Shown piece after piece: positions 1,762 through 52,268 of a stretch of 64,000 bases of DNA. Positions within the stretch are counted from its first letter, which is position 1. The number at the start of each line of letters is the position of its first letter. The translations under genes were made by a program, and so were the position numbers. Below the pieces are notes generated by a model. It was not told the DNA's origin, searched no databases, and saw nothing but the letters and a program-made list of their open reading frames with translations. The stretch is from Eubacteriales bacterium (GTDB lineage: Bacteria; Bacillota; Clostridia; Oscillospirales; CAG-272). The stretch spans positions 719 to 64,718 of the forward strand of contig JAZKYE010000060.1 of NCBI GenBank assembly GCA_045611965.1, in the 5' to 3' direction.

Positions 1762-3783
1762 ATGATTAATGTTGATCTTGCTATGACAAGACTTCTTAAA
1801 GAGGATATAGAGCTTTCACCGTTTTCATCCGACATAAGAATGCATCTTGAACGCTATAACAGTAAGCGTTACGAGCTTGTGGGCGGCGGGGAATTGCTTT
1901 CCGTTGCAAACGGATATTTATATTTCGGTTTCCACAGAACCGATAGCGGATGGGTATTCCGCGAGTGGCTTCCGGGTGCTGACTCGGCGTGGCTTTTTGG
2001 TGACTTTAACGGCTGGGATGCGTATTCACATCCGCTGACTAATATCGGCGGTGGTGTTTTTGAGATAAAGCTTGAGGGCAAGGATGCGCTTCGCCACGGA
2101 CAGTTTGTAAAGCTTATGGTCGGCAGAGATGGCGCGTCTTTCTCTCGCCTGCCTGCATATGCAAGGCGCGCTGTGCTTGACGAGCGCGATGCAAAGCTCT
2201 GCGCGCAGATATGGATGCCTGACGAGCCCTTTGCGTGGACTGACGGTGACTGGTATGGAAGGAAGGGGCACCGCTCGCCACTCATTTACGAGGCGCATAT
2301 CGGTATGGCGCAGGAACGCGAGGGCGTTGGCACTTACAGAGAATTTGCTGATATAACGCTTGAGTGGATACGCAAGGCAGGCTACAATACAGTACAGCTT
2401 ATGGCAATTCAAGAGCATCCCTACTATGCTTCGTTTGGCTATCAGGTTACGGGCTTTTTCGCACCTTCCTACCGATACGGCACGCCCGAGGACCTCAAAT
2501 ATCTTATAAACAAGGCGCACTCGATGGGAATTGCCGTGCTTCTCGATATCGTGCATAGCCACGCCTGCCCTAATGTGGGTGAGGGACTTAACCGCCTTGA
2601 CGGTACTGACGGACAGTATTTTCTTGAGGGTGAGCGCGGATGGCATAGCGCGTGGGGAACGAGGCTTTTTGATTACGGCAGGGCTGAGGTTCTGCACTTC
2701 CTTCTGTCTAACCTCAAATATTGGCAGGACGAGTTCCACTTCGACGGCTTCCGCTTCGACGGCGTAACCTCGATGCTTTACGAGAACCACGGTCTTGGCG
2801 TTGCCTTTACAAATCTTTCGCAATATTATTCGCTCAACACCAATGTTGATGCGAGAGTTTATCTTATGCTCGCAAACGAGCTTATCCACAAGAATAATAA
2901 GCGCGCTATCACCGTTGCAGAGGATATGAGCGGCATGCCCGGAATGTGCCTGCCTCTCGCATCGGGTGGCTTCGGATTTGATTTCAGGCTTTCTATGGGC
3001 GTTCCCGATATGTGGATTAAGCTTATCAAGAAGGAAAGAATGGACGACTGGTCGGTGGGCTACATTTTCTCTGAGCTTTCAGGCGGCAGAGAGGGTGAAG
3101 GCTCGATAGGATACAGCGAGTCGCACGATCAGGCGCTCGTCGGTGATAAGACGATAATGTTCCGTCTTGCCGATGCAGAGATGTACACGGGTATGATGAA
3201 GAGCTATCATTCCCCCTCTATGGATACCGCGATAGATATGCACAAGCTCATCCGCTTCGTGACCGCGGTGCTTGCTAAGGACGGTTATCTCAACTTTATG
3301 GGCAACGAGTTCGGTCACCCTGAGTGGATAGATTTCCCGAGAGAGGGCAACGGTTGGAGTCATAAGTATGCGCGCCGTCAGTGGTCGCTCGTGCGTAACC
3401 TTACCTACAAATACGATTGGCTCTGCGAGTTTGACAGAGCGATGATAGCGCACCTGCGTCGCTACCTCGTTCACTCGAAGAAGCGCGCGAGGCCGATATG
3501 GCTTGACGAAGCCAAGAAGCTTATGATATTCGAGCGAGGCGAAATAATCTATGCGGTGAACCTTCACCCCACCTGGTCACAAAATCCTGCCTTCATCTGC
3601 ACGAAGGATTTTGATAAGAGTGAGTTTCGCGTCGTGTTCTCGTCGGACAAGAGCGAGTTTGGCGGGCAGGGAAGAATATCGACAGAGCAAACCTATGTTG
3701 CAACCGACACACCGTTTGGGCGCGGATTTTTCATATATCTTCCTGCAAGATGTGCCGTCGCGCTTAAATCGGTAAAAGGATAG
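1762..3783 (+). CDS. glgB: 1,4-alpha-glucan branching enzyme (GH13)
   Basis: GH13 catalytic-region motifs are present: LLDIVHSH, GFRFDGVTSM, AEDMSG, YSESHDQ, plus a CBM48-like N-terminus. ATG at 1762 sits 7 nt after GAGGGGG; the GTG at 1756 in the ORF track lies too close to the RBS. Confidence 0.9.
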   Translation: MINVDLAMTRLLKEDIELSPFSSDIRMHLERYNSKRYELVGGGELLSVANGYLYFGFHRTDSGWVFREWLPGADSAWLFGDFNGWDAYSHPLTNIGGGVFEIKLEGKDALRHGQFVKLMVGRDGASFSRLPAYARRAVLDERDAKLCAQIWMPDEPFAWTDGDWYGRKGHRSPLIYEAHIGMAQEREGVGTYREFADITLEWIRKAGYNTVQLMAIQEHPYYASFGYQVTGFFAPSYRYGTPEDLKYLINKAHSMGIAVLLDIVHSHACPNVGEGLNRLDGTDGQYFLEGERGWHSAWGTRLFDYGRAEVLHFLLSNLKYWQDEFHFDGFRFDGVTSMLYENHGLGVAFTNLSQYYSLNTNVDARVYLMLANELIHKNNKRAITVAEDMSGMPGMCLPLASGGFGFDFRLSMGVPDMWIKLIKKERMDDWSVGYIFSELSGGREGEGSIGYSESHDQALVGDKTIMFRLADAEMYTGMMKSYHSPSMDTAIDMHKLIRFVTAVLAKDGYLNFMGNEFGHPEWIDFPREGNGWSHKYARRQWSLVRNLTYKYDWLCEFDRAMIAHLRRYLVHSKKRARPIWLDEAKKLMIFERGEIIYAVNLHPTWSQNPAFICTKDFDKSEFRVVFSSDKSEFGGQGRISTEQTYVATDTPFGRGFFIYLPARCAVALKSVKG

Positions 3784-39300: not shown

Positions 39301-40374
39301 TCAGCGCACCTTGTCAAGCGCGGTCTTAAGCACAGCCTCTACCTCGTCTGCCATAAAGGCAAAGCCGAGGTCGTTCGGGTGCGTGCCGTCAACCGTGCAT
39401 TCATCTCTGTACGGCTCGCGGAAGATGTGCTCACCGTCGATAAAATAGAGGTTTTTGTCACCCGCCCTAGTTCCCTCGTCGTACGCTTTAAGTATTGCCG
39501 CGCGGCGCACTCTTGAAAGCTCGGGGTTCTTGTCAAAGTTAGGCATCGACATCATAATATATGGTATGTCGGGGTGCTTTTCTCTGATTTTTCTGTACAT
39601 ATTACGGTTGGTTCGCTCAAGGTGCTCGGGGTTTGGTGAGTTGTGGTCGTAATCCGACACAAAGGCGCATATATCAAGCGATGCCATATAATCGACTATC
39701 GTGTCCTCTGCGCGACCGTTTCCCGAGAAGCCGAGGTTGATATAGTCAAGCGAGAGCCTGCGCGAGAGTATATTCTGATAGCAGTTACCGGGACGGCTTG
39801 CACATCCGCCCTGCGTTATCGAGCTTCCGTAGAATATTACGGGCTTGCCGTTTGCATAAGCCAGCCCCTGCCCGAGCGTCGCCCCGCTCTCAATACCGAC
39901 GAGAAGATTTTTAACACCGCCGTAAAGAGGGAAATTTATCGTAATAAATCTTTGCTTTTTCTCACCGAGGCAGACCTTTGCCGCATAGCTCTCTTTTGCG
40001 GTTACGGGTGGAATAAACGTGCCCTTGTATCGGGAAATTTTCCCGTCCTCGTCGATATAAAGGTCAAATCCCGTCATACCCGTCTGTGGCATATGCGCCA
40101 TATTCCTTGAACGGAAGCACTCAACCGAAAGTGTTACGTACGACGAGTCGGTAGAGAAGCGAAGTCTGCCGCCTGCCGTGTCAAAGTATAGGTTTTTGAC
40201 ACCCTCATTTACATTATGCGCCACCTCGTCCGGCAGTCTTTGGAACACCTGCTCGTTCTTGTAATCGTAAAGACCGTAAACCTTAAACGGTGGCTTTCTC
40301 ACATCGAAAAACACCGTGCCGTCGTCATCGGTGGATACGGGGGCAAAATTCTTGTCGATTTCATAAATATTCAT
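39301..40374 (-). CDS. SGNH/GDSL-type hydrolase (carbohydrate esterase-like) with N-terminal beta-sandwich-like domain
   Basis: Block I is FYGSSITQGG and the C-terminal block is DGTHPND. The ATG at 40374 follows GAGGTG; the GTG at 40383 in the ORF track is itself part of that RBS. Confidence 0.7.
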   Translation of the reverse strand: MNIYEIDKNFAPVSTDDDGTVFFDVRKPPFKVYGLYDYKNEQVFQRLPDEVAHNVNEGVKNLYFDTAGGRLRFSTDSSYVTLSVECFRSRNMAHMPQTGMTGFDLYIDEDGKISRYKGTFIPPVTAKESYAAKVCLGEKKQRFITINFPLYGGVKNLLVGIESGATLGQGLAYANGKPVIFYGSSITQGGCASRPGNCYQNILSRRLSLDYINLGFSGNGRAEDTIVDYMASLDICAFVSDYDHNSPNPEHLERTNRNMYRKIREKHPDIPYIMMSMPNFDKNPELSRVRRAAILKAYDEGTRAGDKNLYFIDGEHIFREPYRDECTVDGTHPNDLGFAFMADEVEAVLKTALDKVR

Positions 40375-40396
40375 AAAAAGCACCTCGCTATAAGTA

Positions 40397-40432
40397 AAGG
40401 CGTCTGCTATCAGTAATTATAGCAGACGCCTT
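40397..40432 (-). terminator. hairpin at the 3' end of the helicase/AAA/VWA operon
   Basis: aaggcgtctgctat (40397-40410) pairs perfectly with atagcagacgcctt (40419-40432). The T-run on the minus strand is weak. Confidence 0.45.
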
Positions 40433-40449
40433 GGGAAAAGTCAATAAAA

Positions 40450-41805
40450 TCAGATATAAACGCACCTGCCAAAGCTGGGCTCTTCCTTGCTGTCCGCGAT
40501 TATCCACAGCACGTCAATTCCCATAGCGGCGCGCTCGTCGGGGAATGGGGCGTAGCCGTCGGTGAGAATGATTATGCTCTTCGGCGGGTCATCCGACATA
40601 TTTTTCTTTACATATTCGAATATTATATCAAAGCTCGTTCCGCCGCCGCCCTTGGGACGGATAGCGCGAAATTCCTCAATGGACTCAAACGGTACGGGTG
40701 GCACTACCTTCGCGTCGAAGAAGCCGAGCAGACCTGCAAGGCGTCCTTCAAAAAGGTCGATAGCACCCTTGATTTCGGAATAGCACTCGGTGATAAGCGA
40801 GTCCGACATAGACGCAGAGGTGTCTATCATAAACAGAATGTTCTCGACCTTTTCCTCGGTGTCGTTGTAGTCGGGAAGATAGAAGTCACCGTCACCGTAG
40901 CGCTTGTCTGGTGGCGAGAAGGAATAGTCGCATATCTCGGTGTCAATAAACTCGCAAAGAAGCGTGCGCCAGTCACACTTGGGATTTTTAAGCTCGTCAA
41001 GAAATCTCTCTGCACAAAGCGGAAGCAGACCGCGCTTGTTCGAAGGGTCCATAATCCTTATTGCCGCCTCTGCGTTATTGACGCGGCTTATAATTTTGTC
41101 AGAGAGAATTTCGTCTTGCGAGGTGCCCCAGCGCGAGTGGTCGTCCCAGGTTGCGTTATCACTCTTGTCACCGCCGCTCTTGCCTGCGCCTGCGCCCCTT
41201 GCGCTGCCGCTGCCCCCTGACGCGCCCTCTCGCTTGCCGTCACCGCTATCACCGCCGCCATCGCTTTGGTCAGAGCCGCCCTTTGATGCGCCCTTGCCGC
41301 TGCCGCCCTGTGACCTCATCTTCTTTTTAGCATCGTCAGCGAGCATATTATACACTTCCTCTGCCGTATAGAGATAGCCCTCTTTACCGTCAGGGGCGAG
41401 GTGCATAGACTCGCCAAACTCTTTCAGGGTGATGCTTTCCTTTTTCATTCCGTTTGCACGAAGGATGTTTGAGTTTACCACTATATCACACGCGATATTG
41501 AATAAAAACGGCTCGTAGTCGTGTCCTCGCGTGCAATGCTGAAGCGCCGCGTGAAGGGTTTCGTGCATAAGTATGAAATCCACCTCAGAGTCAGAGAGCT
41601 TGTCAAGGAAGCTCGGTGAGAACATAATTTCCTCACCGTTGGTAGCCGCCGTATCAAGCACCTCGTCAACCGAGAAAACCATATGCATAAGCAGCATTCC
41701 AAAGAAGGGATGCGAGCTTAACACACGCATTCTTGAGAGCAGAACCCGCCTTGAATATTCTCTTTTTTTCTCATCCGTAAGGGTGGTTCTACCGCTGTTT
41801 GTCAT
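40450..41805 (-). CDS. zincin-like (HExxH) metallopeptidase domain fused to VWA domain (DUF2201-like architecture)
   Basis: HETLH at 41565-41551 (aa 81-85). A Gly/Ser/Asp-rich low-complexity linker spans about aa 165-215. The MIDAS motif DTSAS lies at 40824-40810 (aa 328-332). The start overlaps the upstream AAA gene stop by 4 nt. Confidence 0.8.
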   Translation of the reverse strand: MTNSGRTTLTDEKKREYSRRVLLSRMRVLSSHPFFGMLLMHMVFSVDEVLDTAATNGEEIMFSPSFLDKLSDSEVDFILMHETLHAALQHCTRGHDYEPFLFNIACDIVVNSNILRANGMKKESITLKEFGESMHLAPDGKEGYLYTAEEVYNMLADDAKKKMRSQGGSGKGASKGGSDQSDGGGDSGDGKREGASGGSGSARGAGAGKSGGDKSDNATWDDHSRWGTSQDEILSDKIISRVNNAEAAIRIMDPSNKRGLLPLCAERFLDELKNPKCDWRTLLCEFIDTEICDYSFSPPDKRYGDGDFYLPDYNDTEEKVENILFMIDTSASMSDSLITECYSEIKGAIDLFEGRLAGLLGFFDAKVVPPVPFESIEEFRAIRPKGGGGTSFDIIFEYVKKNMSDDPPKSIIILTDGYAPFPDERAAMGIDVLWIIADSKEEPSFGRCVYI

Positions 41806-42899
41806 AAGTATTTACCTGCCTTAGTCAGCCATCTTGCGAATTGAGGAATCTTCATAAGCTTGAGCTTGTAGCCCTCTTCAAGATACATATAGTTTTTCAT
41901 AAGTATGCAGGAAAAGTCAGGGGGCATACGAAGCGCATAATCTATACTATGCTCTATTTTTGTAAGGTTGCCTTTGCATTTCCTTGCATATTCAGTCATG
42001 GATGACACGAGCGCGTAGAGTACGTCTGCGCTTTTAGGCATATCAATGCACTTGCCTGAAAATATGTCGTCAATAGAAGGCAGCTTGCCGTAAATCTCAC
42101 AGTAGCTACGAAGCTCTATCGCAGCACCGACACCCACCGTGCCCGCGACGAGATGATATACGCTCTTGATATCACCGCCCGATGCTAAAAGCAGATTTGA
42201 TACCATTTCCCAGGAACGGGGGGTAGCGTAGGCGAGGTCGTCTGCTCTCGTTTCATTTAAGAAGAGGTCGCGTCTGAACGAGAGGAAGCCCGTCACTCTT
42301 GACGAAATTCCGTGCTCTACCGCCCACTTCATCCACGAGTCAAAGTCTGCACATATTTCGATGTGCATAAGACGGTTGGCAAGCGCCCTAGGCATCTTGT
42401 ACGCCACCGACTTGTCGGTAAGACGGTTTCCTGCCGCAATAACTATGCAGTTTTCAGGAAGCCTATGCTCACCGACCACGCGGTCGAGCGTTATCTGATA
42501 AGCCGCCGCCTGAACGCTCTGCGGTGCGGCTGAAATTTCATCGAGGAAGAGGATATTTACCGTGTCGGCATCCTCGTCCATCTGAAAGATTTTAGGCTTA
42601 AGCCAGACGGCGAGCGTCTTGTCCTCGTTTGCGGTGGGAATACCGCGCAGGTCGATGGGGTTGAACAGAAGCAGACGCACGTCGGTCACCACCACGCGCT
42701 TGCCGGTTTTTTTCTGAATTTCATTCGCTATCTGTCTTACACCTTGGGATTTACCCACACCGGGCGCACCCCACAGCATAGCAGACGGCACAGTCCTTAC
42801 GGGAATTCCTGCGTTTATTACCTTTATATAAATATCGGAAAGAGCCTCGACAGCCTTTCCAACCGAGAGAGTCGGTAAATTGCTTTGAGTATTAGCCAT
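41802..42899 (-). CDS. MoxR-class (AAA_5-like) AAA+ ATPase
   Basis: Walker A GAPGVGKS at 42770-42747. Walker B ILFLDEIS (aa ~116-123). AAGN sensor-like motif. 365 aa. It overlaps the helicase gene by 8 nt. Confidence 0.85.
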   Translation of the reverse strand: MANTQSNLPTLSVGKAVEALSDIYIKVINAGIPVRTVPSAMLWGAPGVGKSQGVRQIANEIQKKTGKRVVVTDVRLLLFNPIDLRGIPTANEDKTLAVWLKPKIFQMDEDADTVNILFLDEISAAPQSVQAAAYQITLDRVVGEHRLPENCIVIAAGNRLTDKSVAYKMPRALANRLMHIEICADFDSWMKWAVEHGISSRVTGFLSFRRDLFLNETRADDLAYATPRSWEMVSNLLLASGGDIKSVYHLVAGTVGVGAAIELRSYCEIYGKLPSIDDIFSGKCIDMPKSADVLYALVSSMTEYARKCKGNLTKIEHSIDYALRMPPDFSCILMKNYMYLEEGYKLKLMKIPQFARWLTKAGKYL

Positions 42900-45800
42900 T
42901 TTTTACACCTAACCTTCTGTCAAGCTCGTCAAGTCTTGACCTGTAATGCTCTATTCTTTCGAGGTAGTCGTTTTCGCGTTTAAGCTCGTTCTTTATCGAG
43001 CGCTCGCGGCGTTTAAGCTCGGTTTCTGCCGAAATAAGCCTTTCAAGATGCTCACTTAAGCTATCGAGCTTGTTGTCAATTCTTAAAATTATACCCTTGT
43101 CACTCTCGCCAAGCTCAACGAAGTATCTGCCGTCGCGCACGAGGAAGATATAGGGCGCAGAGCGCATCATGCCAGCAGGTATCACGATATCAAAGCCGCG
43201 ATAGCTCGTCACCGTGCGCTCTTCCGTAAGAAGCTCGCCGTCGCGAAGTGCCTCGGCAATAATATCGCGAAAGTCGTTCTTCGCATCCTTTGACAGCTCA
43301 ATTCCGCACCCTGCCTCGGCGACAAGATACTCAACGTCGTGACGGCAGGCGGCAATAAGTCGCGCCTGACGCTGCTTTTTGTCGGGAATTGACGCAAGCT
43401 CTGCGTGAAGCGAGTCGCGCTCTTCGGTGTCCTTTGAGAGAAGAAGCTTGAACTTCGTCAGCATATTCGCGCACTCAATTCGCTCTTTTATAAGGGGATT
43501 TCCTATCGCGAGAGCCTTGATTTCACCGTAGCTTAACGATATATCGCCAACATCGGCAGCACTTCTGTCGGTTATGAAGCCCGAGAGAATATCCTCTATA
43601 AACTTCTGCTTGGTTTCAAGAAGCTGCCACGAGTAGGCGTCAAAGCTTCCCTCGGTTACATAGCGGAAAATCTGAACCTTGGGGCAGGTGTTGCCCTGAC
43701 GAAGAATTCTACCCTCTCTTTGCGTTACGTCCGACGGACGCCAGGGCAAATCGAGGTGGTGAAGTGCAACGAGACGCTCTTGAATGTTGACACCCATACC
43801 GACCTTGAAGGTCGAGCCGATAAGCACTCTTATCTCACCGCGGTTTACCTTGGCAAAGAGCTTTCCTCTCTGCGTGTCGGTCGTGGCGTTGTGAACGTAC
43901 TCGATTTCATCAGGCTTAACGCCGAGAATTTCAAGCAGAGAGCGAAGCTCGTCGTAAATGTTGAAGCCTGCCTTGGGGGTTGAGGTGTCGCAGAATACGA
44001 GCTGCGCGCACCTTTCCTTTTCGGTTTTGAAATAGATGTCGGCAATTCTCTCTGCACACTTGTAAACCTTTGACGAGGTGGTAAAGGCGAGAGTGTTTCT
44101 CACAAGCCTTATATCAAGTGCCGCCTTTCGTCCGTCGGTGGTTATGAGAAGAAGGTTGTCCTGCTTTCTCGGCACCTGCTGACGCCTTACCAAATCCGCG
44201 CGCCTTGAAATATCCTCAAGATATTCGGCAAAGTCGGCGGTTTTCGGCACGAGAATGTCGGTATAGCCCTCAAAATCAGGAATTTCGTTAGTCTTGTCCA
44301 CCTTGTGAAAGTCGGTTACAGAGGCGAAAAGATTAGTGAGCTCGGGCAGGTTGAAGAAGCGTGAAAGACGCGTTGCCATACGGAAATTGCTCGTGTCCAC
44401 ATCAATCTCAAACTCGGTGTGCTTCTCTGCAAACATACCTACCCACGAGTCAAAGGATTGAAGCTCAAGCAGCTCAAGCTCGCCGCTTTGCAGGTATCTT
44501 TGCATCGTATATACATCGCTTACCGAGTTGGTTATGGGCGTACCCGTTGCGAAAACCACGCCGCGTCCGCCATTCTGTCTTTGTACGCAGTGCACCTTTT
44601 TGAGCATAGACTCGCACTTTGAGCTGTACGTGTCGGAAACACCGAGCAGCTGCATCTTAGTGTCGAGCTTTATGTTCTTGTAGTTGTGACCCTCGTCGAG
44701 GAAGAGCGTATTAATGCCGAGGTCCTCAAAGTATATACCGCAGCCACCGTCACCGTCATCCTCACCGTCACCGATAAGCCCCTGCGTCTTGCCTGCCGGA
44801 AGAAGCGGAAGCTTGTCCTCGCCCTTTGCCTTTTTCAGCTGCTCGTCAAGAGTGTGCTGTCTGCGGCGAAGCGCGGTGGTCTGACGCTTGGGATTTTTGA
44901 GAGCCTCGTCGATTTCCTTCTTTTTGTCCTCAAGCTCTGCTATCAGGTAGTCCTTACTGAGTGCAATTCTGTCGAAGCAGGAATACGCCATAATTATCGC
45001 CTCAAAGTCACCGTCGCGTATGAGCCTCATCGTTGCCTCACGGCTCTTTGGCGTGAACTGCGAGGGGGTTACGGTGAGAAGCCTTGCATCAGGGTAAAGC
45101 TCAAGATAAGCATCCGTCCATTGACCCGTAAGGCTGTTCGGCACGACGTAAAGGTTCTTCTTTGATATTCCCATACGGCGAAGCTCGTGACCTGCCGCAA
45201 CCATAATATAGGTTTTACCCGCGCCGACGTCGTGTGCAAGAAGCGTGTTGGGCGAGAAGAGTATTCTCGCTATGGCATTCTTCTGATAGGTGTAAAGGCT
45301 TATTTTGGGGTTGAGGTCACGAAGGGCAAGAAACGCGCCGCTGTACTGACGCGCTACCACACAGCCGTATCGCTCGTTGAAGATTTTTTCAATCTTTGAC
45401 CTTCTGCCGGGGGCGGAAAGCACCCACTTTGAAAATTCCTCAAGGATAAGCTTCTGCTTTTCCTGCGCGAGAATGGACTCGGTTTCGTTGAGGGTTCTCG
45501 TGGTCTTGGTTTTTCCACCCACACGCGTGGTGTTCGTGTCATATACCTTGGGTATCTTCTGGTTAAGCGTGCATTCGATTATTTCAAGGGCGTTCATAAA
45601 GCGCGTTCCGTAGGTGAAGTTACAAAGCGCGCGCGTCTTGCCGTAATCGTACCTTGACTTCAAGGGGATTTCCCACGAGCCCGTCGCAACGTCGTGCTTG
45701 GTCGAGAGAAATTCCTTTGAGTAGTAATAGCAGGTCGCCTTGCCTAAAAGATGCACGATAAACTGGTCGATAATCTCGGCGGGAAGCCACGGCGAGCCTA

Positions 45801-46233
45801 TCGTAGCGTAAATGTCCTCGGCTCTCGTGCGCTTGGGAAGCACCTTGCGAAGGGCTGTGATATTCCGCTGGAAGTAGCCCTGATGCGCTTCGTTTGCCGC
45901 CTTTGCGGCGTTTATCTTTTCGAGGATGTTGCCCGAAAGATATTCGTCTGCGCTCTCGAATCCGAGATAGTAGCATTCCTGCCACTTAAGGGGGTTCTGG
46001 TAGATAGCGCCGCGCGCCTGCAAGGTGGAAATGACCGTTTTCATATCCTCACCGCTAAGCTCGCTGATGTATTCGATATCAACGCGCGCTCGGTGGTTGA
46101 GTGAGGCAATAAAGGCATCCTCGATGCTCATCTTAACCTCGCCGCATCCGTCACTCTTGGGCACGTCCGTGAACAGGTCGTCCCAGTCGATTGAGAGGCG
46201 CTCGGTGCTGTCATTAAAATTCGGGCTCATCAT
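42892..46233 (-). CDS. SNF2/DEAD-like superfamily 2 helicase, 1113 aa, with long uncharacterised N- and C-terminal regions
   Basis: Motif I HDVGAGKT (GAGKT at 45225-45211). Motif II DEGH at 44697-44686. Motif III-like ATGTPITN. Motif VI QREGRILRQGN. C-terminal coiled-coil-like ELKRRERSIKNELKRENDYLERIEHYRSRLDELDRRL. RBS AAAGGAGAAAG precedes the ATG. Confidence 0.85.
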   Translation of the reverse strand: MMSPNFNDSTERLSIDWDDLFTDVPKSDGCGEVKMSIEDAFIASLNHRARVDIEYISELSGEDMKTVISTLQARGAIYQNPLKWQECYYLGFESADEYLSGNILEKINAAKAANEAHQGYFQRNITALRKVLPKRTRAEDIYATIGSPWLPAEIIDQFIVHLLGKATCYYYSKEFLSTKHDVATGSWEIPLKSRYDYGKTRALCNFTYGTRFMNALEIIECTLNQKIPKVYDTNTTRVGGKTKTTRTLNETESILAQEKQKLILEEFSKWVLSAPGRRSKIEKIFNERYGCVVARQYSGAFLALRDLNPKISLYTYQKNAIARILFSPNTLLAHDVGAGKTYIMVAAGHELRRMGISKKNLYVVPNSLTGQWTDAYLELYPDARLLTVTPSQFTPKSREATMRLIRDGDFEAIIMAYSCFDRIALSKDYLIAELEDKKKEIDEALKNPKRQTTALRRRQHTLDEQLKKAKGEDKLPLLPAGKTQGLIGDGEDDGDGGCGIYFEDLGINTLFLDEGHNYKNIKLDTKMQLLGVSDTYSSKCESMLKKVHCVQRQNGGRGVVFATGTPITNSVSDVYTMQRYLQSGELELLELQSFDSWVGMFAEKHTEFEIDVDTSNFRMATRLSRFFNLPELTNLFASVTDFHKVDKTNEIPDFEGYTDILVPKTADFAEYLEDISRRADLVRRQQVPRKQDNLLLITTDGRKAALDIRLVRNTLAFTTSSKVYKCAERIADIYFKTEKERCAQLVFCDTSTPKAGFNIYDELRSLLEILGVKPDEIEYVHNATTDTQRGKLFAKVNRGEIRVLIGSTFKVGMGVNIQERLVALHHLDLPWRPSDVTQREGRILRQGNTCPKVQIFRYVTEGSFDAYSWQLLETKQKFIEDILSGFITDRSAADVGDISLSYGEIKALAIGNPLIKERIECANMLTKFKLLLSKDTEERDSLHAELASIPDKKQRQARLIAACRHDVEYLVAEAGCGIELSKDAKNDFRDIIAEALRDGELLTEERTVTSYRGFDIVIPAGMMRSAPYIFLVRDGRYFVELGESDKGIILRIDNKLDSLSEHLERLISAETELKRRERSIKNELKRENDYLERIEHYRSRLDELDRRLGVKNG

Positions 46234-46332
46234 CTTTCTCCTTTTTCTATTTTTCGCGTGTGTAAAATATTATAGCGAATACGGTGTGTCATAAACGGTA
46301 CAACCACACGCTATTTTCCTGATGGGGAAATA

Positions 46333-46361
46333 AGTATAGCATAGCAAATTTCGTTTGTCAA
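46333..46361 (-). promoter_or_regulatory. sigma-A type promoter of the helicase/AAA/VWA operon
   Basis: On the minus strand: TTGACA (46361-46356), 17-nt spacer, TATACT (46338-46333). This gives a leader of about 95 nt. Confidence 0.5.
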
Positions 46362-46807: not shown

Positions 46808-48847
46808 GTGAGAATTGCACTTGCGGGAAACCCTAACAGCGGCAAGACCACTATGTATAATGCCTTAACGGGCAGAAATGAGAAGGTCGGAAACTGGGCG
46901 GGTGTTACCGTCGAAAAAATAGAGCACTCGGTAAGGGCGCGTTACGCAGGGGATAATCAGATAATTGCTGTTGACCTGCCCGGCGCATACTCAATGTCAC
47001 CCTTTACCTCTGAAGAGAGTGTGGCGAGCGAATACGTCAGGGGCGAGCATCCCGACGTTATTATTAATATTGTTGACGCGACTAATCTTTCGCGTAGCCT
47101 CTTTTTTACAACACAGCTTCTTGAGCTTGGAATACCCGTCGTGGTTGCGCTTAACAAAACCGACGCATCAACAAAGCGCAGAAGCAAAATAGATACCCAG
47201 GCACTCTCTGCGCGCCTCGGATGCCCCGTATTTGAAACGGTGTCAACTACCGCTAAGGGACTCGTTGATCTTATGTGTGCCGCAGTACAGCTTCAGGGCT
47301 GTGAGCAGAGCGCGCCTTATCACGGTGCTGACGGATATAGCGAGGATAAGGAAGCGGCAGAGGCGGCTGACCGCCAAAGATTTGAGTTTGTCAAGGACAT
47401 AGTCCTTGCGGTGCAGACGAAGGAAGACCCAAAGGATTTGTATAGCGCGCAGGATAAGCTTGACGCTATTCTTATGGATAGCCGCATCGGACTTCCGATT
47501 TTTGCTGTGGTTATGTTCCTTGTGTTTTTGATTTCACAATGGGAATTCGGACCTGGCGTTCTGCTTGCAAATCTTCTCGTCGGCTGGCTTGAGTCGGGGC
47601 AGGAGTTAATTGCCACGGCTATCAATTCTGACGGAATTTTTGCATCTATTCTCGTTGACGGTATCATAGGCGGCTTTATTGCCATAGTGGGCTTTTTGCC
47701 GCTGGTTATGGTTATGTATTTCCTCATCGCGCTTCTTGAAGAGTGCGGATATATGGCGCGCGCGACGGTCGTGCTTGACCCGATTTTCAAGCGTGTCGGA
47801 CTTTCGGGAAAATCGGTTATTCCCTTCGTTATCGGTACTGGCTGTGCAGTCCCCGGTGTTATGGCTTGTCGCACCATACGCGACGAGCGCGAGAAAAGAA
47901 CGACGGCAATGTTAGCGCCCTTTATGCCCTGCGGTGCAAAGCTGCCCGTTATAGCGCTCTTTGCAGGTGTATTCTTCGGTGACTCTGCGTGGGTTGGCGC
48001 GCTTATGTACTTTGTCGGAATTTTGATTATATTACTTGCCGCTATGCTGATAAACGCGCTTAACGGCTACCGCCCCAGAGGCTCGTTCTTCATTATCGAG
48101 CTTCCCGATTATAAAGCGCCCTCGCTCGGCAAGGCACTCAAAACCACAGCTCAGCGCGGCTGGTCCTTCGTTGTAAAGGCAGGTACGGTAATTCTTCTTT
48201 GTAACTTTATCGTTCACGTTATGCAGAACTTCGGATGGACTCTTTCGCCCGTTGACAACCCTGATGACTCTATACTTGCCTATGTGGCAAGACCGTTTGC
48301 ATACATATTCGCGCCGGTTGTCGGCTTCGTTTCGTGGCAGCTTGCGGCAGCGTCGATTACGGGCTTTATCGCAAAGGAAAACGTCGTCGGCACTCTTGCG
48401 GTGTGCTTCGGCATCACCAATCTTCTCAGCGCAGATACTCTTGCTATTGAGAGCGGGGCTGAGGTCAGTAAGATAGCGCTCGCATTCGGTACGGGAAGTG
48501 GCGGTGCGATGCTTTCGGCAACCGCGCTTGCGTTCCTTATGTTTAATCTCTTTACGCCACCCTGCTTTGCGGCAATAGGCGCTATGAACTCTGAAATCAA
48601 GAGCAAAAGGGTACTCTTTTCGGCTGTCGGACTTCAGTTCTCGGTAGGCTATTCGTTAGGATTCCTTGTGAATTTCTTCGGCTCACTCTTTACTGACGGA
48701 CTTCGTGGCGAGAGTTGGACCTATATCGTCGGCTGGATAGCAGTTCTTGTAATAGCCGCAATATATGCGACAGCGATACTTATCAAAAGGCGCGAAGCGC
48801 GCAGGGGCGAAAGCAACGATACGAAGCCACTTGTGACGGCGGCGTGA
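46808..48847 (+). CDS. feoB: ferrous iron transporter B
   Basis: N-terminal G-domain IALAGNPNSGKTTMYNALTG, DLPGAYS, NKTD, followed by a polytopic membrane domain. Confidence 0.95.
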   Translation: MRIALAGNPNSGKTTMYNALTGRNEKVGNWAGVTVEKIEHSVRARYAGDNQIIAVDLPGAYSMSPFTSEESVASEYVRGEHPDVIINIVDATNLSRSLFFTTQLLELGIPVVVALNKTDASTKRRSKIDTQALSARLGCPVFETVSTTAKGLVDLMCAAVQLQGCEQSAPYHGADGYSEDKEAAEAADRQRFEFVKDIVLAVQTKEDPKDLYSAQDKLDAILMDSRIGLPIFAVVMFLVFLISQWEFGPGVLLANLLVGWLESGQELIATAINSDGIFASILVDGIIGGFIAIVGFLPLVMVMYFLIALLEECGYMARATVVLDPIFKRVGLSGKSVIPFVIGTGCAVPGVMACRTIRDEREKRTTAMLAPFMPCGAKLPVIALFAGVFFGDSAWVGALMYFVGILIILLAAMLINALNGYRPRGSFFIIELPDYKAPSLGKALKTTAQRGWSFVVKAGTVILLCNFIVHVMQNFGWTLSPVDNPDDSILAYVARPFAYIFAPVVGFVSWQLAAASITGFIAKENVVGTLAVCFGITNLLSADTLAIESGAEVSKIALAFGTGSGGAMLSATALAFLMFNLFTPPCFAAIGAMNSEIKSKRVLFSAVGLQFSVGYSLGFLVNFFGSLFTDGLRGESWTYIVGWIAVLVIAAIYATAILIKRREARRGESNDTKPLVTAA

Positions 48848-48857
48848 GGTAGAGCAT

Positions 48858-49034
48858 ATGGGGTCTGCTGAAATTATAGCCGCCATCCTTATCGTCCTCA
48901 TAGTCGGCGCATCGGTGTTCTATATAGTAAAACAAAAAAAGCGTGGCAAAGGGTGCATTGGTTGCCCCTACGCGGGCACCTGCGGCAAACAAAACGACTG
49001 TGAGTGCGCGGAAAATAAAAAACAATCCCCATAA
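48858..49034 (+). CDS. FeoB-associated Cys-rich small membrane protein (58 aa)
   Basis: ATG at 48858 lies 8 nt after the feoB stop, with GAGGTAGAG upstream. One TM segment (IIAAILIVLIVGASVFYIV) is followed by KKRGKGCIGCPYAGTCGKQNDCEC. It falls below the 60-aa cutoff of the ORF track. Confidence 0.7.
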   Translation: MGSAEIIAAILIVLIVGASVFYIVKQKKRGKGCIGCPYAGTCGKQNDCECAENKKQSP

Positions 49035-49084
49035 AATGCTTTCGGGGTGCGGGACGCTTTGGCTTCAAAGCGCCCCGCTTTTTT
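49027..49084 (+). repeat. 58-bp direct repeat, copy 1 (contains the feo operon terminator)
   Basis: ccccataaaatgctttcggggtgcgggacgctttggcttcaaagcgccccgctttttt is identical to 50720-50777. It contains the hairpin gcgggacgctttg (49049-49061) / caaagcgccccgc (49066-49078) plus T6. Confidence 0.9.
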
Positions 49085-49109
49085 CACGTCGTGTTATTCC
49101 TCTGAAAAA

Positions 49110-49149
49110 ATGAGGGTATAAGTAACGCATAGTTTACTTATACCCTCAT
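49110..49149. terminator. bidirectional terminator (16-bp perfect stem) downstream of the XRE gene
   Basis: atgagggtataagtaa (49110-49125) pairs perfectly with ttacttataccctcat (49134-49149). An A-run lies before it and a T-run after it. Confidence 0.6.
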
Positions 49150-49171
49150 TTTTATTAAATTTTGATATCTT

Positions 49172-49444
49172 TTAAAGTAGTTTAAGTGTGTCGAGTTGTT
49201 TTTGAATGCTGTCAATTAATGCGGCGCGTTTTTTGCTTGTTCCTACGTCAGTGTCGGTGCGTCCCAAAAGATAATCAATGGATACCTCAAAAAAATCCGC
49301 AAGACGAATAAGAGCATATGCATCGGGCAAGGTTTTGCCTGTTTCATAATTGGATATTGTCCTCTGGTCGATGCCCGTAGCGGCTGAAAGATCGCTTTGT
49401 CTTAAATCCCTGTCCTCGCGTAAATCCTTAATTCTATTCTTCAT
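49172..49444 (-). CDS. XRE-family helix-turn-helix transcriptional regulator
   Basis: LREDRDLRQSDLSAATGIDQRTISNYETGKTLPDAYALIRLADFFEVSIDYLLGR is a canonical Cro/C1-type HTH. 90 aa. Confidence 0.85.
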   Translation of the reverse strand: MKNRIKDLREDRDLRQSDLSAATGIDQRTISNYETGKTLPDAYALIRLADFFEVSIDYLLGRTDTDVGTSKKRAALIDSIQKQLDTLKLL

Positions 49445-49477
49445 ACTTCACCCCAAAGATTAGTATATACCCTAAAT

Positions 49478-49500
49478 CATACCACGAAATTAGTAAAAAC
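49478..49500 (+). promoter_or_regulatory. 23-bp operator-like repeat, copy A
   Basis: cataccacgaaattagtaaaaac matches 49538-49560 at 19 of 23 positions. It sits immediately upstream of the -35 box of the LRR gene promoter. Confidence 0.4.
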
Positions 49501-49502
49501 TA

Positions 49503-49531
49503 TTGACAAACCAAATAAATGCATATATAAT
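49503..49531 (+). promoter_or_regulatory. sigma-A type promoter of the LRR lipoprotein gene
   Basis: TTGACA (49503-49508), 17-nt spacer, TATAAT (49526-49531). Confidence 0.55.
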
Positions 49532-49537
49532 ATAAAC

Positions 49538-49560
49538 CATACCAAAATATTGGTAAAAAC
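49538..49560 (+). promoter_or_regulatory. 23-bp operator-like repeat, copy B
   Basis: cataccaaaatattggtaaaaac lies just downstream of the -10 box, exactly 60 bp from copy A. Confidence 0.4.
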
Positions 49561-49597
49561 AATTTTGTATTCGGTCGAGTTCTGAAAGAGGTGTAAA

Positions 49598-50716
49598 ATG
49601 AAGAAATCAATTTATCTATTTATCGCATTGATGCTAATAGTTTGTGCTGTCGTGCTTTGCTCGTGCGACCAAAACGATGAAGCAGGTGTTAGAAACGAGG
49701 GTAAGTTTGAATACAGACTGTCGGTTGATGAAACTTATTATATTTTAACTGCCAATAAGAATAAGGATGCAACAAGTGTGGTTATTGAAAGCTCACACAA
49801 AGGTTTGCCTGTAAAAACTATAGCATCAAAAGCATTCGTTGGTTGCATGTCATTGAAAAGTATAATTATTCCAGATAATATAACAACTATAGAAAAAGGT
49901 GCATTTATAGGATGCCCCGTTCTTGAGGAAATCACGCTTCCATATGTTATTGGACAAAAAGAGGGGCAATCGTATTTCGGATATTTGTTTTCTCTTGAAC
50001 AGTATCCGGGGAATAGTTATGTTCCAAGCACATTAACAAAAGTAACCATTACAAGCGGTGAAAAAATAACGAATGGTGTTTTTTCTAATTGTGAGAGCAT
50101 TACTGAAATTGTACTTCCAAATACTATTACAAGAATAGATAGTGGGGCATTTCATCACAGCGATAAACTGACTACTATTAATATTCCGGGTAGCGTTACG
50201 TATATAGATAGGTATGCATTCGAAGGTTGTGAGGCTTTGGAAAAGGTTGTTATAGAGGACTTGGCAAAATGGTGTCACATAGGTTTCAATGAAAGCACTT
50301 CAAATCCGCTCAAATACGGCAAACTGTATCTGGATTATGACGGAGAGTACCAGAAAAATGTTATAATTCCGTCTGGTGCTACTAAAATTAATTCCTATGC
50401 TTTTTATGGTTGCGATACCATTGAAACTGTGGTTATTCCAAATACCGTAGAGCAAATAGGAGCTTATATTTTTAGTGAGTGTACATCGCTTTCAAAAGTT
50501 ACTATTCCTGCGAGTGCTAATTATATAGCAAAACGCGCATTTTATAATTGCGAGAATTTGACTGATGTTGTGTTTGAGAATGTAAACGGCTGGACAAGGA
50601 CTTATTTGGGCAGTTATAAAAAGGATTTTTCTGCAGAGGAGCTTTCTGTATCTATGATCGCAGCGAAGTATCTGAAGAAAACATATGTTGATATAGCTTG
50701 GAATAGAGGTGAATAA
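49598..50716 (+). CDS. BspA-type leucine-rich repeat (LRR_5-like) lipoprotein
   Basis: Signal peptide plus lipobox-like VLCSC. Repeats of about 23 aa follow, of the form IPxxVxxIxxxAFxxCxxLxxI. Confidence 0.8.
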   Translation: MKKSIYLFIALMLIVCAVVLCSCDQNDEAGVRNEGKFEYRLSVDETYYILTANKNKDATSVVIESSHKGLPVKTIASKAFVGCMSLKSIIIPDNITTIEKGAFIGCPVLEEITLPYVIGQKEGQSYFGYLFSLEQYPGNSYVPSTLTKVTITSGEKITNGVFSNCESITEIVLPNTITRIDSGAFHHSDKLTTINIPGSVTYIDRYAFEGCEALEKVVIEDLAKWCHIGFNESTSNPLKYGKLYLDYDGEYQKNVIIPSGATKINSYAFYGCDTIETVVIPNTVEQIGAYIFSECTSLSKVTIPASANYIAKRAFYNCENLTDVVFENVNGWTRTYLGSYKKDFSAEELSVSMIAAKYLKKTYVDIAWNRGE

Positions 50717-50719
50717 ATA

Positions 50720-50777
50720 CCCCATAAAATGCTTTCGGGGTGCGGGACGCTTTGGCTTCAAAGCGCCCCGCTTTTTT
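50720..50777 (+). repeat. 58-bp direct repeat, copy 2 (terminator duplicate)
   Basis: Identical to 49027-49084. It begins 3 nt after the LRR lipoprotein stop codon. Confidence 0.9.
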
Positions 50778-50837
50778 ATCGCCTTTTTAGTCCGCTATTT
50801 TTATTTTCTCTTTTGCCTTTCTTTTATTGATATCTTC

Positions 50838-50866
50838 TTGCACTATCGTTAAATCTATGCTAAAAT
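50838..50866 (+). promoter_or_regulatory. sigma-A type promoter of fumC-malic enzyme
   Basis: TTGCAC (50838-50843), 17-nt spacer, TAAAAT (50861-50866). Confidence 0.45.
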
Positions 50867-50897
50867 ATATAGGTAAAATATATTTATGGAGATGGAT

Positions 50898-52268
50898 ATG
50901 GAATATCGTATTGAGCGTGACTCGATGGGTGAGGTTGAGGTTGACAGCCTTCGTCTTTGGGGTGCACAAACACAGAGAAGCCTTAATAATTTCAAAATAG
51001 GAAGCGATAAGATTCCGCGCGAGGTAATAGAGGCGCTTTTGAAGATAAAGCTCGCCTCTGCCAGAGTAAACGCAAGGCTCTTGCCTACGCGAATGACGCA
51101 GGAAAAGCTAGCGGCTATCGAGGATGCGGTGACGCGACTTCTTGGCGGCAAGTACTTTGATGAATTTCCGCTTTCGGTATATCAGACGGGAAGCGGCACT
51201 CAAACGAATATGAACGTAAACGAGGTCGTTGCAAACCTCGCAAACTTCAAGGTCGGCAAGACGCTGTTACATCCGAATGACGACGTCAATATGTCGCAGT
51301 CCTCAAACGACGTATTTCCGTCGGCTATGCACATAGCGGCAAGGGATATAATTGAGGGCGACCTTTCATTATCAATATATATGCTCACCCTTGCGTTTGC
51401 CGCGCTTGAACGCAAGGCAGAGGGTGTGGTTAAATGCGGAAGAACACATCTTCAGGATGCAACCCCGATAACCTTTTCACAGCAGGTGAGCGGATGGCGC
51501 GCAACTCTTGAGCGTGACTGCGAAATGCTCAAATGTGCGGCGAGTCGGCTCTCGGTGCTTGCGCTCGGTGGCACGGCTGTCGGTACGGGACTTAACGCGC
51601 CGTCCGGCTTTGACAGGGCGGTAGCAGACGAGCTCTCGCGCATCACGGGCAAGGAATATGTGCCTGACGAAAACAAGTTTCATGCGCTTTCGGCAAAGAG
51701 CGAGATATGCTTTGCACACGGCGCGATAAAAACGCTTGCTTGTGACCTCGTCAAGATAGCAAACGATATAAGATGGCTTGCATCAGGACCGAGAACGGGG
51801 CTTGGCGAGATAACGCTTCCGTCAAATGAGCCCGGCTCGTCTATTATGCCGGGCAAGGTAAATCCCACGCAATGCGAGGCTATGACTATGGTGTGCGCGC
51901 GCGTCATCGGCAACGATGCGACGGTTAGCTTCGGTGCATCGCAGGGCAACTTTGAGCTTAACGTTTATATGCCCGTTATTATATATTCGTTTATGAATTC
52001 GGCAAGGCTTCTTTGCGATGCTATTCGTTCCTTTGCGGAAAATTGCGTCATCGGAATTGAGGTTAATGTCGATAAAATGAAAGCAAATCTTTACAATTCG
52101 CTTATGACAGCTACTGCGCTTACACCCTTTATAGGCTATGATAACACCGCGGCGGCAGTTCATCTTGCACACGAAAAAAATATTACATTAAAAGAGGCGG
52201 TGCTATTACTCGGCTTTATGAGCGGTGATGAATTTGATGAGCACTACCATCCTGAAAAGATGGTGTAA
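50898..52268 (+). CDS. fumC: class II fumarate hydratase
   Basis: YRIERDSMGEVEVDSLRLWGAQTQRSLNNFKIG and the signature GSSIMPGKVNPTQCE. The ATG at 50898 follows GGAG (50888-50891). In-frame ATGs at 50886 and 50892 are alternative starts. Confidence 0.9.
   Translation: MEYRIERDSMGEVEVDSLRLWGAQTQRSLNNFKIGSDKIPREVIEALLKIKLASARVNARLLPTRMTQEKLAAIEDAVTRLLGGKYFDEFPLSVYQTGSGTQTNMNVNEVVANLANFKVGKTLLHPNDDVNMSQSSNDVFPSAMHIAARDIIEGDLSLSIYMLTLAFAALERKAEGVVKCGRTHLQDATPITFSQQVSGWRATLERDCEMLKCAASRLSVLALGGTAVGTGLNAPSGFDRAVADELSRITGKEYVPDENKFHALSAKSEICFAHGAIKTLACDLVKIANDIRWLASGPRTGLGEITLPSNEPGSSIMPGKVNPTQCEAMTMVCARVIGNDATVSFGASQGNFELNVYMPVIIYSFMNSARLLCDAIRSFAENCVIGIEVNVDKMKANLYNSLMTATALTPFIGYDNTAAAVHLAHEKNITLKEAVLLLGFMSGDEFDEHYHPEKMV

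Follow-up and report, generated by a model that had tools for sequence, protein, structure and literature searches.

Three overlapping genes on the minus strand of a 64,000-nucleotide stretch of contig JAZKYE010000060.1 from a Eubacteriales bacterium (hereafter, the window) encode a helicase, a MoxR-class AAA+ ATPase, and a protein that joins a zincin metallopeptidase domain to a vWA domain. This trio is a single conserved, horizontally spread unit, and the enzymes of all three genes are predicted to be active. Arguing from association, we suggest, with a probability of roughly 0.45, that the trio acts against invaders as a conflict system on the "ternary" MoxR-vWA plan, with a DNA translocase as its third component and the zincin as its effector. 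A preliminary description made from the DNA sequence had presented the same operon as an undescribed three-gene NTPase system with a possible role in defence; the observation itself is confirmed, and its interpretation is partly supported.

A scan with the helicase, taking one genome per species, recovered at least 80 loci at 44 to 53% identity. The carriers belong to the Oscillospiraceae, Acutalibacteraceae, Lachnospiraceae, Christensenellaceae, Erysipelotrichaceae, and Bacilli, and they include Anaerotardibacter muris (an actinobacterium of the Eggerthellaceae) and a spirochaete metagenome-assembled genome; the clostridial carriers are gut and rumen species. Cultured strains are among the carriers, namely Lachnospiraceae bacterium AB2028 and YSD2013 and A. 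muris CLA-AA-M13 (loci L033, L053, and L072). Among the 73 of the 80 listed loci with enough downstream DNA to be assessed, 71 have the AAA+ gene and then the zincin-vWA gene directly downstream of the helicase gene (tblastn), and the trio was present in all metagenomic contexts looked up. The three families therefore co-occur well beyond this genome, and the self-contained unit that had been proposed is borne out, with its genes translationally coupled, as are the three minus-strand genes and both of their overlaps, which the open reading frames (ORFs) reproduce. Since the genes share a promoter, overlap stop to start, and keep their order across species, they are probably co-produced in fixed proportions. 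Two species have a full-length trio-type helicase but neither the AAA+ nor the zincin-vWA gene (L058 508-4188 and L080 871-3990); in L080, the helicase is followed by three unrelated genes (384, 208, and 643 amino acids [aa]). At two other loci (L032 14320-15234 and L035 7334-8836), an opposite-strand ORF of ~244 aa lies between the AAA+ and zincin-vWA genes, and the usual overlap is broken.

Clustering of the flanking ORFs revealed no other constant gene. The flanks differ between species and are unrelated, which indicates that the trio moves as a block. It is not a plasmid or phage gene set: no trio-type AAA+ protein was found among the plasmids of PLSDB, where the best match reached 36% identity, and just 1 of 80 helicase matches on the viral contigs of IMG/VR was accompanied by the trio.

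Pfam identifies SNF2-rel_dom, ResIII, and Helicase_C domains in gene 1, and motifs I, II, III, and VI are conserved across an alignment of 78 orthologues. These domains agree with the earlier reading of the protein as an SNF2/DEAD-like helicase of SF2, but its relatives are of a more particular kind. The protein matches PHROG 10089, labelled "DarB-like antirestriction" (E 5.6e-220, 734 bits), in an alignment where helicase aa 34 to 1108 align with positions 2108 to 3208 of the profile. Searches of IMG/VR viral contigs (tblastn) likewise aligned aa ~36 to 950, in some cases to 1110, at 28 to 39% identity with an internal module of ORFs of 2000 to 6500 aa, and two of these giant ORFs have an Eco57I-type adenine methylase just upstream of the helicase-homologous region, plus InPase and LPD38 domains. 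A methylase-SNF2 dyad of this sort, typified by the P1 anti-restriction protein DarB, has been described in the giant "polyvalent proteins" of phages and conjugative elements (PMC5512222). Judged by these matches, gene 1 is a DarB-like SWI2/SNF2-type helicase module without the methylase rather than a generic SNF2/DEAD protein. More than 2000 plasmids encode SNF2-related relatives of the helicase, at identities of at most 37%, and distinct relatives in metagenomes number in the thousands; the 120 best of these keep the full architecture, including WH_1 (PF28553), DUF8437 (PF28554), and Helicase_dom (PF28555). Close relatives are labelled "DEAD/DEAH box helicase family protein" or "hypothetical protein" at NCBI, and a sequence search of PDB chains with the helicase gave generic SNF2 matches only.

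The helicase N terminus, which the preliminary description had left unassigned, can now be attributed to WH_1 and DUF8437 from precomputed Pfam annotations on homologues, although our local Pfam scan found no match over aa ~101 to 305. An AlphaFold2 model of aa 1 to 330 (predicted local distance difference test [pLDDT] 77) contains a winged-helix-like part followed by a fold without a significant match, so that the DUF8437 portion still lacks a structural relative; Foldseek returned only weak matches to winged helix-turn-helix proteins (E ≥ 0.37). A nuclease or methylase hidden in this region was considered and rejected, as none was detected by Pfam, by NCBIfam, or by Foldseek with the aa 1 to 330 model, in agreement with the earlier remark that the operon shows neither a methyltransferase nor a nuclease. 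Within the insert between motifs I and II, the Gly/Asp-rich stretch at aa ~470 to 500 (KGEDKLPLLPAGKTQGLIGDGEDDGDGGCG) is lineage specific and is missing in ~50%-identical orthologues. The invariant C-terminal LDxxLG[VI] tail was also considered as a specific ligand of the metal ion-dependent adhesion site (MIDAS) of the vWA protein. This candidate was rejected because the tail is present in polyvalent homologues that have no MoxR/vWA partner; the tail is therefore a feature of the helicase module as such and not one tied to the MoxR partners.

Profile searches with the two downstream genes gave the domains that had been expected, as they did for the helicase. Gene 2 matches AAA_3 (31.8 bits, cut-off 27) as well as AAA and AAA_5, and it aligns over its full length with PHROG 1297 (E 2.1e-91, aa 38 to 365 against 26 to 353 of 356). 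It is the most conserved protein of the trio, with ~60 to 65% identity across species, and its Walker A, Walker B, sensor-1 Asn, and Arg residues are conserved across 69 orthologues. Gene 3 consists of DUF2201_N (E 3e-33, 116 bits) and DUF2201/VWA (E 1.7e-10) and is a full-length match to PHROG 1314 (E 1.9e-77, aa 11 to 451 against 5 to 390 of 394). Its HExxH region, assigned to DUF2201_N, also matches the SprT-like Pfam family with 18.8 bits (E 0.0015), under the 25.6-bit cut-off. In 30 homologues, the zincin residues H81, E82, H85, H90, and D107 and the MIDAS residues D328, S330, S332, T390, and D416 are invariant, whereas the linker at aa ~166 to 222 is lineage specific and missing in ~50%-identical orthologues. 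The best Foldseek matches of the vWA domain are the MIDAS domain of MDN1, integrin and anthrax-receptor vWA domains, and NorD (E 2e-5 to 2e-4 for MDN1 MIDAS and NorD). A fold search with the whole zincin-vWA model was dominated by vWA matches and did not inform on the zincin domain, and a sequence search of PDB chains gave no match for either the AAA+ or the zincin-vWA protein. All five motifs placed by the preliminary description (GAGKT and DEGH in the helicase, GAPGVGKS in the AAA+ protein, and HExxH and DxSxS in gene 3) agree with our recomputed translations.

The suggestion that MoxR and vWA proteins form a functional pair can be refined, as this particular pair is itself common in phages and plasmids. 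Together, PHROGs 1297 and 1314 occur in 463 to 851 phage records, including N4-like Schitoviridae, rV5-like phages, and jumbo phages such as Bacillus phage G. For example, the AAA+ protein is 34% identical to gp29 of Achromobacter phage Axy10 and 48.6% identical to gp566 of Bacillus phage G, and in both phages a zincin-vWA partner is encoded a few genes away (Axy10 gp32, L175 5920-7080; phage G gp576, L176 12404-13582). A jumbo-phage survey has noted this MoxR/metallopeptidase-vWA pair and proposed a role in virion assembly or processing (PMC7824862). Without the helicase, the pair is also present on Synechocystis pSYSA among toxin-antitoxin and DUF262 genes, on a Sphaerotilus plasmid beside Sir2 and DUF262 genes, on the conjugative Paraburkholderia plasmid pBC201 (L182 6980-10337) adjoining PRTRC and type IV secretion system (T4SS) genes, and on Thermus oshimai pTHEOS01 (L180 1-12765), where RecQ-like and UvrD-like helicases flank it. 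In phage GenBank records, the two proteins often carry the labels "ATPase" and "HNH endonuclease," the second of which is also the name given to the zincin-vWA protein in PHROG 1314; the content of a DUF2201_N zincin and a vWA domain suggests that this second label is a propagated misannotation.

Evidence for a role in defence comes from the genomic context of relatives. In a relative with 64% identity, the GDSL side of the locus is kept, and a TIR-STAND gene lies three genes downstream. In relatives with ~50% identity, the trio sits in variable islands after different core genes (lysS-greA, ruvABC-argGH, and addAB), among GmrSD pairs, HsdR, HNH, a retron reverse transcriptase, Mrr, NADAR, serine recombinases, and an rve integrase. 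Other strong matches among the neighbours are Cas9, a DRT reverse transcriptase, GajB, PDC-S01, PDC-S02, PDC-S08, PDC-S26, dGTPase, and AriA. Of the 51 loci for which 8 kb or more of flanking DNA was available, 23 encode a WYL(-WCX) regulator within 10 kb, often adjacent to the trio, and WYL is the commonest family among nearest neighbours (21 of 292, against 0 of 43 for other window genes). BrxR-family members of the WYL class are known to be encoded alongside defence systems (PMC9122601). When compared with PDB chains, a neighbouring WYL protein gave no match; BrxR was not recovered, and membership in the BrxR family is thus unconfirmed by sequence. In many genomes, the adjoining WYL regulator probably controls expression of the trio.

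Several observations weigh against a role in defence. In the window, the neighbours of the trio are housekeeping in character: an aminotransferase, an indolepyruvate ferredoxin oxidoreductase, two phenylacetate-CoA-ligase-like proteins, an SSF transporter, a GDSL lipase, FeoAB, an LRR_5 protein, and fumarase. The preliminary description had already pointed out the missing defence-island context and a G+C content like that of the flanks, and both points hold (0.50 to 0.51 for the trio, the same as its flanks). The feoAB-trio-GDSL synteny recurs in a relative whose proteins are ~80% identical, and there the trio proteins (79, 84, and 77% identical) are at least as conserved as the flanking FeoB (74%), SSF transporter (79%), and GDSL protein (59%), which argues for vertical inheritance under purifying selection at a stable chromosomal locus in this lineage. 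No strain-level empty site between feoA and the GDSL gene was found; a metagenome scan with the GDSL protein gave five distant (~53%), short contigs without the trio. Among the 43 other window genes that served as a control, ~10% matched PADLOC at E ≤ 1e-10 through housekeeping paralogues (GlgB, FtsH, and SMC). Raw PADLOC neighbour counts were dropped as an enrichment test for this reason, the context evidence was restricted to the identity of hallmark neighbour matches and the WYL counts, and the defence association is accordingly a qualitative one rather than a statistic. DNA-damage responses, too, are under the control of WYL regulators, among them PafBC and DriD. Neither Pfam nor the N-terminal model of the helicase reveals a toxin or nuclease effector in the trio. 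Finally, the annotated proteins nearest to each of the three serve invaders and not hosts. The defence role proposed earlier thus gains WYL, GmrSD, retron, DRT, Cas9, GajB, HsdR, and TIR-STAND neighbours in relatives, but the case is circumstantial.

The components have precedents in conflict. Predicted NTP-dependent conflict systems that use peptidase effectors have MoxR-vWA pairs at their core (PMC7159879), and in phages and plasmids the helicase family and the AAA/zincin-vWA pair both belong to the usual arsenal (PMC5512222, PMC7824862). In a working model for the trio, the helicase, from what is known of its family a DarB-like SWI2/SNF2 motor with an N-terminal winged helix, would bind double-stranded DNA and track along it. 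By analogy with studied MoxR-vWA pairs, the AAA+ protein would form a ring, the vWA MIDAS would capture an acidic peptide of a client, and ATP hydrolysis would remodel that client. More speculatively, the client could be a DNA-bound or injected invader protein on the tracked DNA, or the helicase itself as a switch, and the fused zincin might then cleave the client, with the result that the invader is disarmed or host shutdown is triggered. As it has no methylase and no detected nuclease, the trio would not act as a restriction-modification system.

A bolder version of the model, which we regard as improbable, is "proteolytic restriction," in which gut bacteria have domesticated a DNA-shielding helicase of phages or plasmids and wired it to a MoxR-vWA-zincin machine. 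The translocase would track foreign DNA or compete for DNA with the invader's own DarB-like protein, and DNA-bound invader proteins would be stripped and cleaved, for example relaxases, terminal proteins, or polyvalent and anti-restriction proteins that have been injected. Immunity of this kind would target invader proteins and not nucleic acid, leaving nuclease and methylase unused.

If the trio does serve in defence, it would add a widespread, unnamed system to the immunity of gut and rumen Firmicutes, which are difficult to study, and would be present in at least 80 species-level genomes and thousands of metagenomic sequences. Its mechanism would be unusual, combining a translocase, a MoxR-vWA remodeller, and a zinc protease without a nuclease, methylase, NADase, or membrane effector. 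It would also provide a first functional handle on the AAA+/zincin-vWA pair of hundreds of lytic phages and a clear case of one helicase module common to hosts and invaders.

Other functions could account for the same genes. In eukaryotic DNA-protein-crosslink repair, the SprT-like zincins SPRTN and Wss1 act with the p97/Cdc48 AAA+ unfoldase and a helicase, and a DNA motor grouped with an AAA+ protein and a metalloprotease suits this logic. The trio might by analogy clear nucleoprotein obstacles, with the translocase meeting stuck proteins, the MoxR ring unfolding them via the vWA adaptor, and the SprT-like zincin degrading them. The SprT-like match in the HExxH region points in this direction, as do the DNA-damage roles of WYL regulators such as PafBC and DriD, the chromosomal, vertically inherited window locus with its housekeeping context, and the MoxR/DUF2201 pair lying beside RecQ- and UvrD-like helicases on the Thermus plasmid. 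However, we judge this explanation unlikely: the SprT-like match misses its family threshold, every part has its closest relatives among the conflict proteins of phages and plasmids, the patchy distribution reflects horizontal transfer and the flanks are unrelated, and the trio recurs beside GmrSD, retron, Cas9, Gabija, and restriction genes. Were it true, the trio would be a bacterial counterpart of SPRTN/p97, which would also be new. In a second rival reading, which we hold to be about equally doubtful, the trio is a mobile-element module, that is, a polyvalent protein unbundled within integrated elements, where it would protect or establish the element's own DNA or destroy host defence proteins. 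The PHROG 10089 match and the homology to modules of giant phage and plasmid proteins fit such an origin, as does the place of SNF2 and zincin domains as hub partners within polyvalent proteins (PMC5512222). The AAA/zincin-vWA pair is found in the phage records and beside the PRTRC and T4SS genes of a conjugative plasmid, and serine recombinases, an rve integrase, and an FtsK-like gene occur within 10 kb of the trio in some loci. Yet many loci follow core genes directly and have no recombinase in their vicinity, the trio is nearly absent from phage and plasmid collections, and the window operon, vertically inherited among core genes, has its own predicted promoter of the housekeeping type. Moreover, DarB-type action requires a methylase and delivery with the DNA, neither of which is evident here.

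It is also conceivable, though we give it the lowest standing, that the MoxR-vWA pair is purely a chaperone that assembles, matures, or recycles a helicase engaged in ordinary DNA metabolism, with no conflict involved. Studied MoxR-vWA pairs do mature or remodel a specific client encoded nearby (PMC9976466, PMC13036017, PMC7159879), the genes of the trio are tightly coupled, and the vWA domain resembles those of NorD and MDN1 MIDAS by Foldseek. But the invariant zincin active site suggests proteolysis beyond remodelling, and each side of the supposed partnership exists alone: thousands of polyvalent proteins and the two solo loci have the helicase module but no MoxR/vWA partner for it, while phages have the AAA/zincin-vWA pair without the helicase. 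The defence-rich context in relatives speaks against it as well. These three rivals and the conflict-system reading leave the remaining probability unassigned.

The positions of the genes, motifs, domains, and control signals are collected in Table 1.

Table 1. Features of the three-gene operon and of loci alongside the trio in relatives. Positions are those of the window unless a relative locus (L) is named.
Feature	Position	Strand	Basis or remark
Gene 1, helicase, 1113 aa	42892-46233	-	ORF
Gene 2, MoxR-class AAA+, 365 aa	41802-42899	-	ORF; start overlaps helicase stop by 8 nt
Gene 3, zincin-vWA protein, 451 aa	40450-41805	-	ORF; start overlaps AAA+ stop by 4 nt
Predicted sigma-70-type promoter, TTGACA-17 nt-TATACT, TG-extended	46333-46361	-	Sequence and promoter scan
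Ribosome-binding site AAAGGAG, 5 nt 5' of helicase ATG	46238-46244	-	Sequence
Winged-helix-like domain WH_1 (PF28553), helicase aa ~37-100	45934-46125	-	Precomputed Pfam on homologues
DUF8437 (PF28554), helicase aa ~101-305	45319-45933	-	Precomputed Pfam on homologues
Two-lobed SF2 motor, helicase aa ~310-900	43534-45306	-	Pfam and alignments; motif VI QREGRILRQGN
Helicase motif I GAGKT, aa 337-341	45225-45211	-	Translation
Helicase motif II DEGH, aa 513-516	44697-44686	-	Translation
Helical or coiled-coil-like C-terminal domain, LDxxLG[VI] tail, helicase aa ~901-1113	42895-43533	-	Alignments
Walker A GAPGVGKS of AAA+, aa 44-51	42770-42747	-	Translation
Zincin domain, gene 3 aa ~10-165	41311-41778	-	HExxHxxxxH at aa 81-90; AlphaFold2 pLDDT 87-97
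HExxH of gene 3, aa 81-85	41565-41551	-	Translation
Gly/Ser/Asp-rich low-complexity linker, gene 3 aa ~166-222	41140-41310	-	pLDDT <50; unconserved in alignments
vWA domain with intact MIDAS, gene 3 aa ~318-451	40453-40854	-	Foldseek and motif conservation
MIDAS DxSxS of gene 3, aa 328-332	40824-40810	-	Translation
Perfect 14-bp hairpin/palindrome 3' of operon	40397-40432	-	Fold calculation; T-run absent
Accessory set alongside trio	L178 5459-9625; L183 17182-23534; L184 16223-23299; L185 16051-18063; L003 17692-23516

The promoter that the preliminary description assigned to the operon was recovered by our promoter scan as a predicted site with 11 of 12 consensus matches and a TG extension. 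The hairpin said to end the operon is real and stable (predicted free energy, -23.9 kcal/mol; z, -7.1), but its role as a terminator is doubtful. The lack of a T-run keeps it out of the terminator-scan list, and its sequence coincides in part with a promoter-like site close to consensus (TTGACT-17-TATAAT with TG, 40444-40416) that faces the GDSL/SGNH gene (39301-40383); both features make termination uncertain. The hairpin may be a weak terminator or an operator, and the palindrome could be an operator for the GDSL gene instead of, or besides, a terminator. Scans for tRNA genes and Rfam families found neither around the locus. Elsewhere in the window, G+C is lower at positions 1 to 2000 (0.378) and around a BspA-type LRR_5 gene at 49598-50716 (~0.44 over 48000-52000). 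LRR_5 proteins are also encoded near the trio in 14 relative loci, which their abundance in these genomes probably suffices to explain.

A recurrent accessory set accompanies the trio in a sub-clade and is found in many Oscillospiraceae-type relatives. The set comprises an AAA+AAA_lid_6 protein (~670 aa) and its ~280-aa partner, an FtsH-like AAA-M41 protease without transmembrane segments (~425 aa, IetA-like in PADLOC), PAD_porph, and a Metallophos phosphoesterase. With the AAA+AAA_lid_6 protein in 13 and the FtsH-like protease in 7 of 87 clustered loci, these are frequent but inconstant neighbours. The set may represent a second, linked multi-AAA/protease system.

Searches of defence and protein family databases did not place the trio in a named system, as the preliminary description had also stated. 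In PADLOC-DB 2.0, the helicase has only generic C-lobe matches (20 to 52 bits, aa ~760 to 900, with DrmD best at 52 bits), the AAA+ protein has weak sub-threshold matches (best, mad8 at 20.7 bits), and the zincin-vWA protein has none. Nothing in NCBIfam 20 (June 2026) scores above cut-off for any of the three. A literature search that covered neither subscription-only papers nor newer DefenseFinder releases found no description of the trio, directly or via its DUF families, and a paper on anti-defence genes in plasmid leading regions does not mention its domains.

Among named SNF2 defence helicases, DISARM DrmD, BREX BrxHI/HII, Hma HmaA, Dpd DpdE, and Zorya ZorD share a generic SF2 C-lobe with the trio helicase, and DrmD is also descended from a methylase-SNF2 pairing. 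However, NCBIfam scores of the trio helicase fall far under the cut-offs of these families (49.4 bits against 610 for DrmD, 27.5 against 500 for DpdE, and 15.4 against 1500 for ZorD), and their partner genes (DrmA/B/C/MI, BrxC/PglZ, ZorABC, and DpdA-K) are absent from the operon. NorQ/NorD, RavA/ViaA, CoxD/CoxE, and midasin resemble genes 2 and 3 in the vWA fold, the MoxR-class AAA+ protein, and the gene pairing, but they have no fused protease or helicase partner, and their clients are metalloenzymes or ribosome-assembly factors. The likeness to SPRTN/Wss1 and p97/Cdc48 is one of function only, in that a zincin protease, an AAA+ remodeller, and a DNA motor come together; the SprT-like match of the trio is sub-threshold, and MoxR is not a Cdc48-type double-ring unfoldase.

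The closest counterparts are found among conflict proteins. With the DarB-like dyad of P1 and the polyvalent proteins (PMC5512222, PHROG 10089), the window helicase shares the pre-helicase WH_1/DUF8437 region, an SF2 core with inserts, and the LDxxLG[VI] tail. It differs in having no Eco57I/EcoKI-type adenine methylase, InPase, LPD38, or other polyvalent domain. DarB has an N-terminal N6-adenine methyltransferase, whereas Pfam and NCBIfam detect none here and the N terminus models as a winged helix-turn-helix and an unmatched fold. The trio helicases are stand-alone proteins of ~1100 to 1300 aa, and the window one is chromosomal, with its own predicted promoter. DarB is encoded by phages or conjugative elements; the trio has a core metabolic context in the window, no trio-type AAA+ relative in PLSDB, and one occurrence among the 80 IMG/VR matches. 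MoxR and zincin-vWA genes are not coupled to polyvalent proteins but are present with the trio-type helicase, and the polyvalent-protein paper leaves MoxR and vWA unmentioned (PMC5512222). Conversely, the phage AAA+/metallopeptidase-vWA pair (PHROGs 1297 and 1314) and genes 2 and 3 are full-length members of the same families, but the phage pair has no adjoining DarB-like helicase, whereas the pair described here is translationally coupled to one in bacterial chromosomes.

Finally, the MoxR-vWA ternary conflict systems (PMC7159879) share with the trio a MoxR AAA+ protein, a vWA protein with an intact MIDAS, one more conserved protein, a peptidase fused to the vWA domain, and a conflict-type context, and some of them recruit SF2 helicases as effector partners (PMC7159879). 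In the trio, the MoxR ATPase is recognised by its AAA_3 profile and its Walker and Arg motifs, and the MIDAS vWA is present, but its constant third gene is none of those listed for the ternary systems. There, that part is a VMAP, a STAND NTPase without activity, an AAA+ protein of the double FtsH type, or a vWA-fused beta-propeller, while in the trio it is a putative DarB-like SNF2 translocase. Trypsin- and caspase-like peptidases dominate in the ternary systems, in which zincins are rare, whereas the trio has a zincin, and their hosts are multicellular actinobacteria, cyanobacteria, and myxobacteria, whereas those of the trio are unicellular gut anaerobes. Overall, the trio fits best as a variation on the theme of MoxR-vWA conflict systems in which a DarB-like helicase is combined with a phage-type AAA+/zincin-vWA pair.

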